DNA from: Spirochaetota bacterium
GTDB taxonomy: Bacteria > Spirochaetota > UBA4802 > JAFGDQ01
Assembly (NCBI GenBank): GCA_043803405.1
Contig: JAZDKB010000042.1
Coordinates: 1 to 11,130 of the forward strand
DNA: 11,130 bases
Direction: 5' to 3'
The notes below the pieces were generated by a model. The model was given only the letters and a program-made list of their open reading frames with translations, made no database searches and was not told the DNA's origin. Each line of letters begins with the position of its first letter. Position 1 is the stretch's first letter. This document shows, piece after piece, positions 250 through 11,021 of this stretch. The position numbers and the translations under genes were made by a program.

Positions 250-3200
250 TTACATATTCCGCCTGTACTGTCCTCCAACGTCAAATAAAGCCTGCGTAAT
301 TTGTCCCAGTGAACAGCATTTAACGGTCTCCATAAGTTCTGTGAAAACATTTTTCCCGGAAAGAGCTGCCTGCTGCAGATGTTCGAGAGCCTTCGGCGCT
401 TTATCGGCATTGAGTTTTTTAAACTCGTTAAGACGTTTAAGCTGAGATTGTCTTTCTTCTTCGCTGGCTCTCATTAAATCAACGGATGAACTAGTCTCTC
501 TCTGATTTTCGTCCGGATTAAGGAATGTATTTACTCCTATTATGGGGAACTCGCCTGTGTGTTTAAGCGTTTCATAATAAATCGATTCTTCCTGAATTTT
601 ACTGCGCTGATATCCTTTCTCCATAGCGCCGAGAACTCCGCCGCGTTCGGTTATCCTGTCAAATTCCAGGAGTACGGCATCCTCAACAAGCTTTGTCAGC
701 TCCTCGACAATAAAACTGCCCTGGTATGGATTCTCGTTCTTGGCAAGCCCCCATTCGCGGTTAATAATGAGCTGTATTGCGAGAGCCCTGCGTACGGATT
801 CAGGGCTGGGCGTTGTTATAGCTTCATCGTATGCGTTGGTGTGCATACTGTTTGCATTATCGTAAACACCGCACAGAGCCTGCAGCGTTGTCCTTATGTC
901 GTTGAACTGAATATCGCGGCTATGCAAAGAGCGTCCCGAAGTCTGAACATGATACTTAAGCATTTGTGACCGTTCTGCTCCGGTATATTTGTGCTTTATG
1001 GCAACCGACCATATCCTGCGCGCAACGCGGCCGATCACCGTATACTCGGGATCCATGCCGTTCGAGAAAAAGAAAGACAGATTCGGCGCAAAACTGTCTA
1101 TATTCATCCCTCTTGAAAGATAATATTCCACGTAAGTAAATGCATTTGCAAGGGTAAATGCAAGCTGTGTTATCGGATTTGCTCCTGCTTCGGCAATATG
1201 ATAACCGGAGATAGAAACCGAGTAGAAATTCCTGACATTATTATCAATAAAATATTGCTGGATATCGCCCATCATTTTCAGAGCAAATTCAATAGAAAAT
1301 ATACAGGTATTCTGCCCCTGGTCTTCCTTTAAAATATCTGCCTGAACAGTGCCCCTGACAGTCGAAAACGCCGAAGCTTTTATTTTCGCGTATTCCGCCT
1401 CCGAAGGTTCCCTCTTATTAGCATTTCTAAAGGCATCAACCTGCTGATCAACAGCAGTGTTAAGAAACATTGCGAGCATAACAGGCGCAGGACCGTTTAT
1501 AGTCATTGAAACTGAAGTTGACGGCGCGCAAAGGTCGAAGCCGTCATATAATACCTTAAGATCATCCAATGTGCATATACTAACGCCGGCCGTGCCTACC
1601 TTGCCGTAAATATCGGGACGCAGGTCGGGATCGTAACCGTACAATGTAGCAGAATCGAACGCTGTTGAGAGCCGCTTCGCTTCATAGTTGCCGGAAACAA
1701 GTTTAAAGCGCCTGTTCGTTCTCTGCGGATCGCCCTCTCCAGCGAACATCCGTGTCGGATCCTCATTTGTTCGTTTAAGCGGGAAAAGCCCTGCTGTATA
1801 GGGAAAGTTACCCGGAATGTTTTCTTCCCTCATCCACTTGTATATCTCCCCCGGATCCTCATACTGCGGCAAAGCAATCTTGGGAATTTTTAAATGACAT
1901 AAAGACTCGACTTTTAATGGAATTCTCAGCTCTTTGCCCCTCACATAATATATTAGTTCATCCTTTTTATAAACAGATTTAATATCATTCCATTTCGTTA
2001 AGAGTTCAGTTGTTTCTTCATCCAGTTGTTTCTTTGCATCATCAATCTCCGCAGCGATTTTATCTGTCACATCGCTGTTATTTTTAAGAGACTTCATTGT
2101 TTCCTCTAGATGCCAGACATGCCTGAGACATTTTGCCTGTGCTTCCGTTTGTTTATGATATTCCCTGATAGTGTCCGCAATCTCTGAAAGATAACGCGTG
2201 CGTTCGGGAGGAATGATTATTGTTTTTGATGTTGATATTTTTGTGAGTGATTTCGGAAGATGCGTCTTAAACTCAACTCTGCTTTTTTCCTTGAGCAAAC
2301 CGATAAGTGCGCTGTAAAGCGCAGTAACGCCGTCATCGTTGAACTTCGAAGCAATAGTTCCGAACACCGGCATTTCTTCGGTCTTTTTCTCGAATGTTTT
2401 ACGATTTCTCTGCACTTGCTTGCGCACGTCGCGCAACGCGTCCTCGCTCCCGGGCTTTTCAAACTTGTTAACTACTACAAGATCGGCGTAGTCGAGCATA
2501 TCAATTTTCTCAAGCTGCGAGGCGGCCCCGAACTCGCCCGTCATTACGTACATGGAAATATCGACCAGATCAGTAATCTGGGAATCGCCCTGCCCTATTC
2601 CGGCAGTCTCCGCTATAACAAGATCAAATCCTGCGGCCTTTACCACCTTGATTGCGTCAATAAGTACGGACGAAATCTCCGAGTTCGACTGGCGCGTTGC
2701 CAGGCTGCGCATATAAACCCTGTCGTTAAAAATAGAGTTCATCCTGATCCTGTCGCCCAGAAGCGCGCCTCCGGTTTTACGCCTTGAGGGGTCGCAGCTA
2801 ATTACAGCTATGCTAATATCCTTTATATCCTGTAAAAATCTTATAATAAGCTCGTCAATAAGCGAAGATTTGCCTGCGCCGCCGGTCCCCGTAATACCTA
2901 TAACCGGAATTTTCTTTTTTTCTATTTTGCTGCTGATTTCGTTCTTGAGTTTATCTATAATTTTCTGATCGTGTCCGGGAGCCTCAATCGCTGTTATCGC
3001 TTTAGCAATATATAATTTATTCGATTCCGAAAGTCCGCCGTTGAAATCAAAATTTTTAACTGTAGAAAAATCCATATTCTGTATCATGTGATTTATCATT
3101 CCCTGAAGACCCATTTTACTTCCGTCCTCAGGAGAATAAATTTTAGTCACGCCGTATTTCTCCAGGTCAGCGATTTCCGAAGGTATGATAACGCCCCCGC

Positions 3201-3501
3201 CGCCGCCGAACACTTTAATGCCTGCTCCTCTTTCTTTCAGCAGATCAACGATATATTTGAAATATTCGACATGCCCTCCCTGGTAGCTGGAAACAGCAAT
3301 TCCCTGCGCATCTTCTTCTATAGCTGCGTCAACGATTTCACGCACAGACCTGTTATGGCCAAGATGAATAACTTCAACACCAGAATCCTGCAGGATTCTC
3401 CGCATTATATTTATAGAAACATCGTGGCCGTCAAAAAGCGACGTTGCAGTTACAACTCTTATGTTGTTTACCGGATTATATTTCTCCGCTTCGATGTTCA
3501 T
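250..3501 (-). CDS. icmF: Fused isobutyryl-CoA mutase / MeaB-like G-protein chaperone (IcmF), adenosylcobalamin-dependent
   Basis: 1083 aa with the IcmF domain order. N-terminal B12-binding domain ([20 protein letters not shown]); MeaB GTPase ([36 protein letters not shown]); C-terminal mutase barrel ([68 protein letters not shown]). SD GGAGG at 3506-3510 on -. Confidence 0.97.
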
Positions 3502-3632: not shown

Positions 3633-3712
3633 CTATGTTTAATTGCAACTTTGACAATAAATATAGAAATTATTGTTTTATTATAAATAATACGGGCATA
3701 ACAGGTAAAAAA

Positions 3713-4273
3713 ATGAATATTAGAAATAAAATCTTAAATATATCTGTCATTTTACTGCTTTTTGCTTTTATAAATGTTTTTAACGACAGTCTGCATTCCG
3801 CCGTACTGTTTAATTCATGGGGATTATCCAAAGAAACAGTCATAAAAAAACATATCACACCGGGTGAAGAAACAGTAACATTTACACCCTCGAAAAACCC
3901 GGATTACGAAAATAAAATAATGAATATGGTAAAACTAATCGTAAAAAATGTAGATTCCGATGCTGATAAAGATATTGAAATAATCAGCACAAAAACGACT
4001 CCAAGAAAGGATTTTTTACTTTTTAAAAATAAACTATTTTCCGTTCTTGAACTTTATAACTCTATTTCAAAAGATGAACTAAAAAGCGTTATTAAAAAAT
4101 TATCCGGTCAATACGGAGAACCGAATTATAATCCCGGAAGTGAAATGGATATATATTTTATCTCAAATAAAGAAACAAAGATCATTGTTCATTATTATAT
4201 TAAATCAAAAAAATGCGAAATCTATTTTTATGATTCCCATCTGTATCATAAATTATCCTCCAATGAATTTTAA
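3713..4273 (+). CDS. Hypothetical secreted/periplasmic protein (186 aa)
   Basis: The ORF track starts at 3635, but that ATG lies only 2 nt after the -10 box. ATG 3713 has an AGGT SD-like motif upstream and begins a typical signal peptide (MNIRNK-ILNISVILLLFAFINVF...SLHS/A). The mature part has WGLSKETV and LSGQYGEP motifs; no family recognised with confidence. Confidence 0.75.
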   Translation: MNIRNKILNISVILLLFAFINVFNDSLHSAVLFNSWGLSKETVIKKHITPGEETVTFTPSKNPDYENKIMNMVKLIVKNVDSDADKDIEIISTKTTPRKDFLLFKNKLFSVLELYNSISKDELKSVIKKLSGQYGEPNYNPGSEMDIYFISNKETKIIVHYYIKSKKCEIYFYDSHLYHKLSSNEF

Positions 4274-6840: not shown

Positions 6841-7258
6841 AATATTTCTTCCTTATATCCTTTGTTCTGAAAAAACATCAATAGCATCTTTATAACTAAT
6901 TATCTCAATTGTAATATTAACAAACCAGACAACCTTTAATCAGTACAATTTTTTAATTAATTATTGCAATTATTTTAAAATTATAATTAAATAAAAGTTA
7001 GACCATTACATATAATCCTTTGTGAACATACCGCAGCCTGATGTTTATTATTGAAAAACCGATCTTATCATAATCAGCCGCCAGAATCGAGCATTGTTTA
7101 AAAACCGGTAATGGTGACTTGAAGTGCACAGGGAATATTGCAGACCAAAAGATAAGTATACAACTCTTGAGCTAATCAACTCCGCTCAAAAATTAACAAT
7201 CTGGCAACAACATTAAGCAGCAGGACGCAGGCACAAAGAAATCGGTGAGGAGAAATCT

Positions 7259-9346
7259 ATGAGCAATTTCATAGTACTTGTCAAGCAGGTCCCGGATATT
7301 TCCCAAATTACTGACAATGCATTTAATTCTGAGACCGGTACACTTATTCGCACCAGATTGCAAAATGTCATCAACGGGCTCGATGCAGAGGCCCTTGCGT
7401 TTGCATATCAAATGAGGAAGGTCAGCGGAGATGTAAATGCCAGGATTATCTGTCTTTCTATGGGTCCTCCGATGGCAGAAGAAGTCCTGCGTTATGCGTT
7501 GAGCCGCTGCGCCGATACCGCCATACTTCTCACTGACCGTGCGCTAGGCGGCGCCGATACAGTAGCTACGGCAAATCCGCTTGCTTATGCAATCCGAAAA
7601 ATTGAGCGTGATCTTTTAGACGGGAGCCGCGATTACTATGTCATTACCGGGATGCAGTCCGTGGATGGGGATACCGCGCAGGTGCCGGCACAGATCGCAG
7701 AGGAGCTTGGGATCGGATGCGTTCCGTATGTAACCAGTGTTGATTTTCATGAAGGCAGATTTTTATTTAACAGAATTATAAGCGGCGGTAGCCAGACAGT
7801 AGCTCCAAAAATAATTCCGACGGTCATTACAGTTGCAAAATACGAATATCCGCTCTATGCCGGTTTTTCGGCGACAAGGCGCGCCAATAAAACAAAAATC
7901 ATCGAATGGAGTGCCGCTGATATACAGGCGACTCAAACAGGAGTGAAAGGATCAAAAACCCAGGTAATAAGAATTTTCCCTCCCGGAAAATCAACCCGCA
8001 AATGCAAACAGGTCAAGGATTTAAATGAGCTTTCCGAAGCTCTTTTAAACAGTTATTATACGGGTGCCGGCAAATCAGCCGGTACATCCGGATCAGCTTC
8101 ATATGTTTTACCCGGAAAAAGAAATCATTTTTTTGAGCGCAATTTTGAAAGCCTTGAGAGAGAAAACCAGAGCTTTAAGATACTTGCCGATAAAATGCGT
8201 GAACTCGGTATTGAAGATCTCTATGACCTTGATGAAGAATTGATGTCAAGGCTGACACTTAATCTTAGACCGCATTTAGAAGAGCATAATATTAAAACTA
8301 TGATCGAGGGGATGAAGCAATTCAATGCATCTTTTCAGGGGGATGTGTGGGTTGTTGCAGAACATGACCAAGGTGTAATTCATCCTGCTTCTCTTGAGTT
8401 AATCGGAAAAGCGAGGGAGCTTGCAAATTCCCTGGAAGTCAAAGTCGGCGCTGTGCTTGCCGGCTACATGGTGGAAGGACTGGCCCGCCAGCTTATAATT
8501 TACGGCGCCGATAAAGTCTATTGCGCCGAGCATGAGCTCCTGGATCATTTTGATCCCCTGTCTGCCCGCAAAGCTGTTGCGGACCTTATATCTGCGAACT
8601 GGCCTCAGATCGTTCTTTTTGCTGCGACACCGGCCGGGAGGATACTGGCGCCGATGGTTTCTTACAGGCTGAATTGCGGTCTTACTGCAGACTGCACATC
8701 TCTGGACATAAGAGACAATACAAAAAAAGGTCAGATTGCCGTTCTGCTTCAGACAAGACCGGCTCTCGGCGGAAACATTATGGCTACGATAGCTACTATC
8801 AATTCACGTTCGCAAATGGCTACAGCACGCCCCGGAATAATGAAAAAAATCAAGCCTGATGAATCGCGCACCGGATCTGTTTTCAAACACGAGTTAAAAC
8901 TCACCGAATCAGATTTGTGCATGGAAATTCAAAAAAGCGAAGAAGCAACAGGAAGGGTAAATTTTGATGTCGAAGTGATTGTCAGCGGCGGAAAAGGTCT
9001 TCAGGACAGGGATAATTATGAAGAGTTGATAGACTCCCTATGTAACATATTAAAGAAAAAGTTAGGTACCGAGGTAGAAAAAGGCGCATCGAGGGCAGCT
9101 GTTGAAAGGGGTTTTATTGGGAGGCCTTACCAGGTTGGGCAAACCGGTACGGCAGTAGGGCCGAAATTATATCTGGCACTGGGAATAAGCGGAGCTATCC
9201 AGCATATGATTGGGGTTGCAAACACTGAAACCATAATTGCAATCAACAGCGACCCCAATGCGCCGATTTTTAAAATGTGCGATTATTACATGATAGGCAA
9301 TGTTGAGGAAATAATACCGCTATTGGTCAAAGAGCTGGAGGCATAA
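7259..9346 (+). CDS. Fused electron transfer flavoprotein beta-alpha (EtfB-EtfA / FixA-FixB-like), bifurcating-type motifs
   Basis: aa 1-~265 are EtfB-like (VKQVPD, SMGPP, LLTDRALGGADTVATA, GMQSVDGDTAQVP, GVKGSKTQV). aa ~362-695 are EtfA-like (VWVVAEH, GLTADCT, QTRPALGGNIMATI, QMATARPG, IVSGGKG, GASRAAV, QVGQTG, GISGAIQH, AINSDPNAPIF). The frame is continuous; SD GAGGAG at 7247-7252. Confidence 0.93.
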   Translation: MSNFIVLVKQVPDISQITDNAFNSETGTLIRTRLQNVINGLDAEALAFAYQMRKVSGDVNARIICLSMGPPMAEEVLRYALSRCADTAILLTDRALGGADTVATANPLAYAIRKIERDLLDGSRDYYVITGMQSVDGDTAQVPAQIAEELGIGCVPYVTSVDFHEGRFLFNRIISGGSQTVAPKIIPTVITVAKYEYPLYAGFSATRRANKTKIIEWSAADIQATQTGVKGSKTQVIRIFPPGKSTRKCKQVKDLNELSEALLNSYYTGAGKSAGTSGSASYVLPGKRNHFFERNFESLERENQSFKILADKMRELGIEDLYDLDEELMSRLTLNLRPHLEEHNIKTMIEGMKQFNASFQGDVWVVAEHDQGVIHPASLELIGKARELANSLEVKVGAVLAGYMVEGLARQLIIYGADKVYCAEHELLDHFDPLSARKAVADLISANWPQIVLFAATPAGRILAPMVSYRLNCGLTADCTSLDIRDNTKKGQIAVLLQTRPALGGNIMATIATINSRSQMATARPGIMKKIKPDESRTGSVFKHELKLTESDLCMEIQKSEEATGRVNFDVEVIVSGGKGLQDRDNYEELIDSLCNILKKKLGTEVEKGASRAAVERGFIGRPYQVGQTGTAVGPKLYLALGISGAIQHMIGVANTETIIAINSDPNAPIFKMCDYYMIGNVEEIIPLLVKELEA

Positions 9347-9350
9347 TACT

Positions 9351-11021
9351 ATGGAGACAGAAAAAAAGAACAACAAAACATCCGTACTTATTGTTGGTGC
9401 AGGACCGGCAGGACTTACATGCGCGCTATCCGCAAAGCGCAATAATCCGGGACTCGAAATATGCGTTATCGATAAGGGATTTGACCTGGGAAACCATACT
9501 CTGTCAGGCGCCCTGCTGGAATCCGATGCCGCGCACCGGTTGATGGATTTAATAAAGGAAAACCGGCAGGATGATGAATCAGTAATAGAGTTATTTTCCA
9601 GAACCGTTGAACGCGATGATATAATTTTTTTGTTTGGAAAAAAAATAAAATTAAACGTGAGTTTTTTAATACGTATTGCAAGTCTGCTAAAGCTCGGCAT
9701 AGGTAAAATGAGACATGATGGAGATTATATAGTTTCAATTTCCAGGCTTACAAAGTGGCTTGGACAAGAGGCACGCAAGGCCGGCATAGAAGTTTTGTCA
9801 GGTTTTTCCGCTAAAGATATTCTGCTAAACGATAACGGGAGCGGAGCAACCGGCATTAAGCTGGTTGACCAGGGCATTGATAAGGAAGGGAATAAACAGC
9901 CGAATTATTCCGAAGGAGAGATAATTGAAGCTGATGTTATTGTATTGGCAGAAGGATGTGATGGACTTGTAACCGAAAGCTTTATAGAAAAAGCGTCGCT
10001 CAAACGACAGAGAAACCAACTCTTTTCAATCGGAGTGAAAGAAGTCATAAAGGTCAGTGAGGAACAATATAAAAAATTCGGGGATAACAGGGTTGTTCAT
10101 ACGCTTGGCTATCCTATATGGACTCCGGTTCTGGGACCAGGCATATTCGGCGGCGGACTTATGTATTCTTACGGAGACAACTGCATCGCGGTAGGAATTA
10201 TATGCGGGCTTGACTGGAAGGAATTTGATTTTAATCCGCAGGATGCGCTTACACACTTTAAAAATCATCCTTTTGTAAACCAGTTTATTAAGGATGGGAA
10301 GGTAATCGAAGCGGGAGCAAAGATGATACCCGAAGGCGGATATTACGCTATTCCCCGAAGTAATAGAACAAATAGTATCGGGAAAGGTAATGTGATAATT
10401 ATTGGAGACAGCGCCGGTTTTGTAAATATGCAAAAAATCAAGGGTCTTCATAATGCGATATATTCAGGAGTTATTGCGGGCAAAGTAGTTTCCGAAGCCG
10501 TAAAAGATCCTTTTACAACAGCGCAAAGGTTCACCGACAGTATTGATCAATCGTCAGTAATTAAAGAAATGAAACAGGCCGGGAAGTTTCGCCAAACAAT
10601 TGCAGCATTCGGCAACCTTTTGGGTCTCCCCTTAACTGTTTTCGGAAGGGCTCTTCCGCTTTTCCAAACTGAGCCTGATTACCGTGCCATGAGGAAAAAG
10701 AAATACAGATATAAAGGGAACAGGGAATTTGACAAGGATACATTCACCGCCCTTGCAAACACCGAACATCGCCACGAACAGCCTTCACATCTTACAATTC
10801 TGGATTCACATACTTGTTCAACAAAATGCAGACCTGTATTCAAGGAACCGTGTATTACGTTTTGTCCTGCCGGCGTATACGAAAATATTCTTGGTGTGCT
10901 CAGGACGGCAAATCCTTCGAATTGTCTGCACTGCAAGACATGTCAGCGAAAGTGTCCCTTTGACAACATACGCTGGACGGTTCCCGAAGGAGGAGGCGGA
11001 CCAAAGTATAAGTTGATGTAA
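9351..11021 (+). CDS. ETF:quinone oxidoreductase (FixC/ETF-QO family) with a C-terminal 8-Cys ferredoxin (FixX-like) domain
   Basis: FAD-binding IVGAGPAG, GNHTLSGA, LAEG, GVKEV, AKMIPEGG, GDSAGFVN, KIKGLHNAI. C-terminal HEQPSHL, CxxxC-x7-CxxxCPAGVYE, NCxxCxxCxxxCP and WTVPEGGGGPKY. SD GGAGG (9337-9341) lies inside the end of the etf gene, with a 4-nt gap. Confidence 0.93.
   Translation: METEKKNNKTSVLIVGAGPAGLTCALSAKRNNPGLEICVIDKGFDLGNHTLSGALLESDAAHRLMDLIKENRQDDESVIELFSRTVERDDIIFLFGKKIKLNVSFLIRIASLLKLGIGKMRHDGDYIVSISRLTKWLGQEARKAGIEVLSGFSAKDILLNDNGSGATGIKLVDQGIDKEGNKQPNYSEGEIIEADVIVLAEGCDGLVTESFIEKASLKRQRNQLFSIGVKEVIKVSEEQYKKFGDNRVVHTLGYPIWTPVLGPGIFGGGLMYSYGDNCIAVGIICGLDWKEFDFNPQDALTHFKNHPFVNQFIKDGKVIEAGAKMIPEGGYYAIPRSNRTNSIGKGNVIIIGDSAGFVNMQKIKGLHNAIYSGVIAGKVVSEAVKDPFTTAQRFTDSIDQSSVIKEMKQAGKFRQTIAAFGNLLGLPLTVFGRALPLFQTEPDYRAMRKKKYRYKGNREFDKDTFTALANTEHRHEQPSHLTILDSHTCSTKCRPVFKEPCITFCPAGVYENILGVLRTANPSNCLHCKTCQRKCPFDNIRWTVPEGGGGPKYKLM

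Follow-up and report, generated by a model that had tools for sequence, protein, structure and literature searches.

A fused electron transfer flavoprotein, probably of bifurcating type, encoded beside an eight-cysteine flavoprotein:quinone oxidoreductase

Bifurcation of electrons from NADH to ferredoxin or flavodoxin and to quinone has been shown for EtfABCX, a four-subunit system built around an electron transfer flavoprotein (ETF) (PMC10734219, PMC13761266). A monomeric bifurcating ETF, SaETF, has also been characterized, and monomeric ETFs were found flanked by ETF/Qor or FixCX in a survey covering proteins of 592-656 aa (Das et al. 2025, PMC12042025). Fused etfA/etfB open reading frames (ORFs) have in addition been cited as group 2C1 (PMC9751042, citing Garcia Costas 2017). 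Here we analyze an 11,130-nucleotide stretch of Spirochaetota DNA, the entire 11-kb contig JAZDKB010000042.1 of a genome that is 94% complete (GCA_043803405.1), which we call the window. It carries an operon for a single-chain ETF (gene 1, 7259..9346, forward strand) and a single-chain ETF:quinone oxidoreductase (ETF-QO; gene 2, 9351..11021, forward strand). The anatomy, motifs and lineage of this module, the conservation of the gene pair and the gene content of its hosts were read directly. The module is real and, judging by its sequence, probably bifurcating, and its design was already known. An initial annotation of the same DNA had raised the possibility of a new architecture, which the described monomeric ETFs beside ETF/Qor (PMC12042025) and the fused group 2C1 (PMC9751042) largely refute. 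Gene 1 resembles SaETF/EtfBA and group 2C1 in being a single chain of EtfB followed by EtfA with bifurcating signatures, and ETF/Qor or FixCX neighbors are reported for those proteins as well. What appears to be new is a separate clade in which a helical insert of ~90 residues is present and two loops at the flavin site are altered (RxRL for RxGV and SKT for SPT), features that, with a length of 695-707 aa, set the family apart from the SaETF type in a comparison made by description only. Because of that length, the clade lies outside the survey of Das et al., which kept proteins of 592-656 aa. A literature search, with most subscription papers outside its reach, turned up nothing on this clade, on any ETF-QO with two clusters or on bifurcation by way of ETF-QO. 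What makes the module interesting above all are the altered flavin loops, the ETF-QO with two clusters and the hosts.

Gene 1 follows a Shine-Dalgarno-like GAGGAG (7247..7252, forward strand) and encodes 695 residues, in which an EtfB (beta) part (residues ~1-267, 7259..8059) is joined through a conserved, Cys-free insert of ~90 aa (8060..8329) to an EtfA (alpha) part (residues 358-695, 8330..9346). This order, with a Pfam content of two ETF stretches and ETF_alpha, agrees with the EtfB+EtfA fusion proposed in the initial annotation. The fusion is not an assembly artefact, since it recurs in 71 full-length family members of 695-707 aa (window copy included), the set to which all motif counts below refer. 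The motifs named in that annotation are likewise all in place: KQVPD at residue 9, GADTVAT at 98, DGDTAQV at 136 and QTRPALGGNIMATI at 498. DGDTAQ is a published signature of bifurcating ETFs, the canonical consensus being D-D-D-S-N-Q (PMC8958531). As in group 2, this zipper has Gly at the Af123 position in 71/71 members, and Gly137 of gene 1 is the counterpart of Af Gly123. The Gly has been validated in F. nucleatum as a marker of flavin adenine dinucleotide (FAD) versus adenosine monophosphate (AMP), with Phe at the same position marking an experimentally canonical ETF (PMC12630350). Every member also has GADTxAT and, in the alpha part, the motifs QVGQTG and SGAIQH of the electron-transfer FAD site, to which SRAAVE of gene 1 belongs as well. 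We take the Thr residues of GADTxAT to be the matches of T94 and T97 of RpaETF. When RpaETF is deprived of T94/T97, AMP stays in the bifurcating site (PMC8958531). The alpha motif RPALGG (R500) is also invariant in the 71 members, where group 2 has RPxFGG and AfETF has RPAAGG. Its Arg had been cited among the motifs of the bifurcating group but does not discriminate, as the residue is common to canonical ETFs and is retained in 447/449 of them (PMC8958531).

Comparisons with whole proteins point the same way. Bifurcating ETFs are the best PDB matches of both halves of gene 1, the alpha half scoring 4e-74 to 1e-54 vs 2e-30 for the human protein. In beta and alpha trees of 45 rows, which have a midpoint root, a long stem and two named canonical rows, both halves form a long-stemmed clade among Fix/Bcd-type rows, apart from the canonical ones. 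The data reject a clade that would unite the family and the two canonical rows (p-AU 0.013), so the clustering with canonical ETFs that could have undone the initial assignment does not appear. The alpha half is sister (98/97) to the Parabacteroides-type EtfA together with a second EtfA of the hosts that is linked to acyl-CoA dehydrogenase (ACAD). On its signature motifs and trees, gene 1 is an ETF of bifurcating type. The insert between its halves has helices predicted at residues 300-315, 326-336 and 342-353; its own profile matched 78 ORFs across 80 family loci, and it had no match in Pfam and no usable match in an ESM Atlas search.

Gene 2 begins 4 nt after gene 1, and its GGAGG ribosome-binding site (9337..9341, forward strand) lies within the final part of gene 1, 9 nt upstream of its own ATG, an arrangement that suggests translational coupling. 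The tight two-gene operon with a Shine-Dalgarno sequence inside the upstream gene, as first annotated, was verified in both ORFs, the gap and the GGAGG. Gene 2 encodes 556 aa with FAD and quinone-binding domains (Pfam ETFQO_UQ-bd and Fer4_ETF_QO). By phmmer it matches pig ETF-QO (2gmh) over its full length at 1.7e-73, vs 1.3e-23 for T. maritima EtfC and 6e-13 for EtfX. Its AlphaFold model (pLDDT 93) superposes on 2gmh with a TM of 0.87 vs 0.56 for FixC (7koe_C), and geranylgeranyl reductases are the next fold matches. The ferredoxin tail (10725..11018, forward strand) has eight Cys in the FixX/EtfX pattern (C489, 493, 501, 505, 525, 528, 531 and 535) that align at the sequence level to 7koe_D and are predicted to bind two [4Fe-4S] clusters; 8/8 are present in 59/59 full-length family members. 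The Tyr that follows the CP motif is retained as well (CPAGVY), and it may correspond to a comparable Tyr that gives the Fix/ETF-QO cluster a higher potential (PMC13761266).

A FastTree phylogeny of 126 rows, from which representatives outside 480-640 aa or lacking an intact tail were left out, splits 122 single-chain proteins from 4 FixC rows (support 100). In it the gene 2 family falls in with forms that have 7-8 Cys, and 54 rows of the proteobacterial 4-Cys type make up a nested clade (support 97). Two clusters may therefore be ancestral in ETF-QO, which with a long outgroup and a quick tree method is a lead only. Gene 2 is a single-chain ETF-QO that keeps the two cluster motifs of FixX and is no fusion of FixC with FixX. 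The initial annotation had described it as FixC/ETF-QO with an 8-Cys tail; the tail and the ETF-QO lineage stand, and FixC is discounted by phmmer, fold and tree. Its headline of a FixABCX condensed into two polypeptides falls as well, since gene 2 has an ordinary single-chain ETF-QO architecture and the module therefore contains one fusion, not two. The second option it offered, a bifurcating-type ETF with an oxidoreductase of ETF-QO lineage, is the one that motifs, trees and fold support. Relative to canonical ETF-QO (pig 2GMH and proteobacterial forms), gene 2 shares the single chain, the fold and the FAD, quinone and ferredoxin domains, and differs in having eight tail Cys vs four, in branching outside the 4-Cys clade and in its partner, a bifurcating-type ETF. 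Additional cysteines are often seen in other ETF-QOs as well. In a large group of 7-Cys forms (L216-L295), Asp takes the eighth ligand position and an EtfB of LQSDDxGxxQ type is the partner; the second cluster is possibly Asp-ligated or [3Fe-4S].

The likeness to Fix/EtfABCX (T. maritima 7KOE and A. vinelandii FixABCX) lies in a predicted set of three FAD and two [4Fe-4S], the 8-Cys pattern and the predicted chemistry, NADH to ferredoxin plus quinone. The differences are that the present module has two genes rather than four, an oxidoreductase of ETF-QO lineage without a separate FixX, an alpha half sister to the Parabacteroides-type ACAD-linked EtfA instead of FixB, and an operon unlinked to nif genes.

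The pairing of the two genes is conserved. A genome scan returned 360 relatives of the fused ETF, and distribution and neighborhood were counted for the best 80 of these (81 loci in the neighborhood counts). Among the best 80 are 75 from Planctomycetota, 2 from Spirochaetota, 2 from Pseudomonadota and 1 from an archaeon. The Planctomycetota are labeled Sedimentisphaerales, Phycisphaerales and Pirellulales, labels that interleave in the trees and probably denote one lineage. The QO gene directly follows the fused ETF in 69/81 loci. Ten of the other 12 reach a contig or locus end no more than 61 bases past the ETF and one has 310 bases left; in L075 the QO is absent. The nearest named copies among the matches listed are the two Spirochaetota rows (77-80%), and the closest QO outside the family (55%) is from Desulfurivibrio sp. 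C05AmB. Of 30 host relatives, G002 alone carries the fused gene, so occurrence near the host is patchy and transfer is plausible. Neither an ACAD nor a nif gene occurs among the 39 annotated neighbor proteins, and longer fused forms (1218-3475 aa) were not found at E<=1e-30, which is weak evidence. One copy, from a bin labeled Candidatus Methanoperedens (L074), groups within the planctomycete rows in each of the three trees and possibly reflects a mis-binned contig or a transfer.

On balance, we favor NADH bifurcation to ferredoxin or flavodoxin and (demethyl)menaquinone by a two-polypeptide functional equivalent of EtfABCX, a scheme for which we infer cofactor content, bifurcation, direction and partners. 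The module would combine a fused group 2-type ETF with a two-cluster ETF-QO, and NADH would reduce the second FAD at the beta/alpha interface. One electron would pass to the electron-transfer FAD in alpha domain II, to the high-potential [4Fe-4S] of the QO tail, to the QO FAD and finally to (demethyl)menaquinone, and the other would reduce ferredoxin or flavodoxin. In the Spirochaetota host, nitrogenase could draw on the low-potential electrons, and cytochrome bd could oxidize the quinol. In planctomycete hosts, MenA would make quinone from scavenged naphthoate, and the quinol would perhaps be drained by a membrane 7-heme cytochrome c with a cytochrome b.

The Spirochaetota genome has nifH, nifD, nifE and nifB over the cut-off and nifK and nifN just under it, in one cluster on contig C3. 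Futalosine menaquinone genes (MqnA/D family matches, an MqnP-like prenyltransferase and a decarboxylase) are present together with MenG, cytochrome bd, a haem-copper oxidase-like gene, NuoA and RnfD. Because nitrogenase, futalosine menaquinone genes and cytochrome bd are all there, a Fix-like role in supplying electrons to nitrogenase fits this host. The Mo-nitrogenase cluster (L296, G000:C3:3081-14548) is on a contig other than the window, and two further nifH-nifDK-like clusters (C15:22355-26962 and C20:76545-80282) stand beside ABC-transporter genes.

For the other hosts, gene content was searched in 50 of the 80 genomes, 45 of them Planctomycetota; the genomes are incomplete and mutually related, and the set holds operon carriers alone, so co-occurrence in it is no test of association. 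A MenA-like gene is found in 40/45 planctomycete hosts (35 over the cut-off), with MqnA/D in 1/45 and MenD in 0/45 (0/51 genomes over the cut-off), which suggests quinone made from scavenged naphthoate. Cytochrome bd occurs in 2/45, one of them partial, and the NarI family in 0/45; haem-copper oxidase and NrfD are in 0/4 near-complete planctomycete genomes. A membrane-anchored 7-heme cytochrome c is encoded in 40/45, followed by a cytochrome b gene in three genomes checked by profile, and the pair is a candidate quinol-to-periplasm conduit. In one such pair (L200:7714-10310, G053), the cytochrome c (~634 aa) starts with a hydrophobic segment, carries 7 CxxCH motifs and ends in membrane helices, and is followed by a cytochrome b (Ni_hydr_CYTB); the pair is also seen at L199, L201 and L204-L215. 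The 7-heme protein has no NCBIfam name, and some homologues carry it as a fusion with a membrane tail. At L138, L140, L145, L146 and L202, in hosts without MenD and MqnA/D, the MenA-like gene lies beside miaA and a polyprenyl-synthase-like gene. Ten loci (L151-L160) hold a second, heterodimeric bifurcating-type etfB-etfA with an acyl-CoA dehydrogenase of ~600 aa, like the Parabacteroides operon in L112.

Several observations weigh against bifurcation to ferredoxin and quinone. RxGV and GxxSPTxV are beta loops of group 2 ETFs (PMC10734219), and both are altered near the bifurcating FAD throughout the family, with RxRL and GSKTxV in gene 1 itself: RxGV is replaced by RxRL in 71/71, with the Arg retained (the ACAD-linked group 2-like reference rows deviate from RxGV as well), and SPTxV is found in 0/71, with GSKTxV in 68/71. 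GSKT is also seen in three non-Gly ETFs from the host order. In T. maritima, the equivalent substitutions R38Q and P239G left only partial activity, 0.6 and 0.9 vs 1.4 for ferredoxin (PMC10734219). The insert could hinder ferredoxin docking, and no ferredoxin or flavodoxin gene is among the 39 annotated neighbor proteins. The idea that a second cluster means a bifurcating partner was rejected by a control set of 80 metagenome loci, mostly of 7-Cys ETF-QOs, where EtfB lies nearby in 21 and the diagnostic Gly is in 0/21. Nitrogenase occurs in 1/50 other hosts, and the module shows neither the linkage to nif nor the confinement to diazotrophs that defines Fix proper (group 2D2). Finally, MenG is over the cut-off in 1/4 near-complete planctomycete genomes, and known pathways to the quinone ring and known quinol oxidases are missing from most planctomycete hosts.

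The shift to RxRL and SKT across the family, together with the conservation of the helical insert, lends itself to a second explanation, in which the ETF holds two FADs and oxidizes NADH, and both electrons go to quinone, with the altered loops and insert blocking ferredoxin reduction. Another NADH outlet would be useful to planctomycete hosts, where NuoA is over the cut-off in 1/45 and NqrB in 0/45. However, every residue tested that tells FAD from AMP in the bifurcating site is retained, and the fused SaETF retains bifurcating-type redox properties (PMC12042025), so that we regard this non-bifurcating route as unlikely. The scarcity of known quinol sinks in the same hosts would instead suit confurcation, in which quinol, fed from outside through cytochrome c/b, and reduced ferredoxin together reduce NAD+. 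Fermenters usually have surplus reducing power, which counts against such a direction. An RnfD-like gene in 33/45 planctomycete hosts already gives a ferredoxin-to-NAD route, the Spirochaetota genome has terminal oxidases, and the reaction would be near or above equilibrium unless ferredoxin were very reduced (potentials in PMC10734219). Confurcation is quite improbable on these grounds.

We give equally little credence to a canonical relay from acyl-CoA dehydrogenase to the fused ETF, or to the host's other ETF, and then through ETF-QO to quinone. By fold and tree gene 2 is indeed an ETF-QO, tblastn of the Spirochaetota genome found no other ETF-QO/FixC homologue, and that genome has 8 ACAD matches and a second, non-Gly ETF. 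IcmF is moreover present in the window. Against the relay stand the bifurcating signature of the fused ETF, the conserved ACAD that adjoins its own etfB-etfA pair in the 10 host loci examined, the failure of IcmF to recur beside the operon and a 714-aa membrane protein that could serve as partner of the host's canonical ETF. This protein (L185, G000:C13:64158-66299) has a NarI-family match and is similar to CCG-type Fe-S oxidoreductases. An acceptor other than respiratory quinone, such as a lipid, a soluble naphthoquinone or a humic shuttle, would accord with the QO's place in the geranylgeranyl reductase superfamily and with the near absence of MenD and MqnA/D, but is very improbable given a full-length ETF-QO match that includes the quinone-binding Pfam domain and the MenA-like genes of most planctomycete hosts.

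The initial annotation reported no acyl-CoA dehydrogenase or nif gene in the window, and none is among the 7 ORFs scanned. Besides the operon these are a full IcmF (fused isobutyryl-CoA mutase/GTPase, 250-3501, reverse strand), an unassigned 212-aa low-GC ORF without a Pfam or NCBIfam match (3635-4273, forward strand), rpsT, a dienelactone-hydrolase-family protein and a HAD phosphatase. Neither IcmF nor the 212-aa ORF recurs next to the operon in related loci, and IcmF was rejected as an operon partner for that reason. A promoter/terminator scan was at chance level (7 vs 9.4 expected). In 43/81 loci a gene for a stand-alone MtbC/MtgC-like corrinoid protein is divergent from the operon (e.g. 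L063:2112-2738); it is present in 37/67 loci with upstream room and is often followed by a 564-aa sigma-70/HTH protein. We discounted it as a partner, since neither the window nor L001-L003 has it and gene order is shared among kin.

If the module does bifurcate, it would be a two-chain quinone-linked bifurcating system that is easier to express than the four-subunit EtfABCX, and a natural experiment on the need for the RxGV and SPT loops. It would serve equally as a test of the role of the second FixX-type cluster (PMC13761266). Bifurcation would here be wired to ETF-QO instead of FixCX. The hosts lend the question a further dimension. Sedimentisphaerales are described as strictly fermentative with the respiratory chain missing, in a paper whose main text does not contain the words quinone and flavoprotein (PMC11266412). 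We consider it doubtful, as a combined proposal, that these "fermentative" anaerobic Phycisphaerae have a hidden minimal quinone chain of NADH bifurcation, MenA-only demethylmenaquinone and cytochrome c/b electron export, and that two-cluster ETF-QOs are a surviving intermediate between FixC+FixX and mitochondrial ETF-QO. That anaerobic planctomycetes supposed to have no respiratory chain conserve this branch is a hint of a concealed route through quinone, and bifurcation by the module would call for a new account of energy metabolism in a group of sediment and peat reported to be without such a chain.

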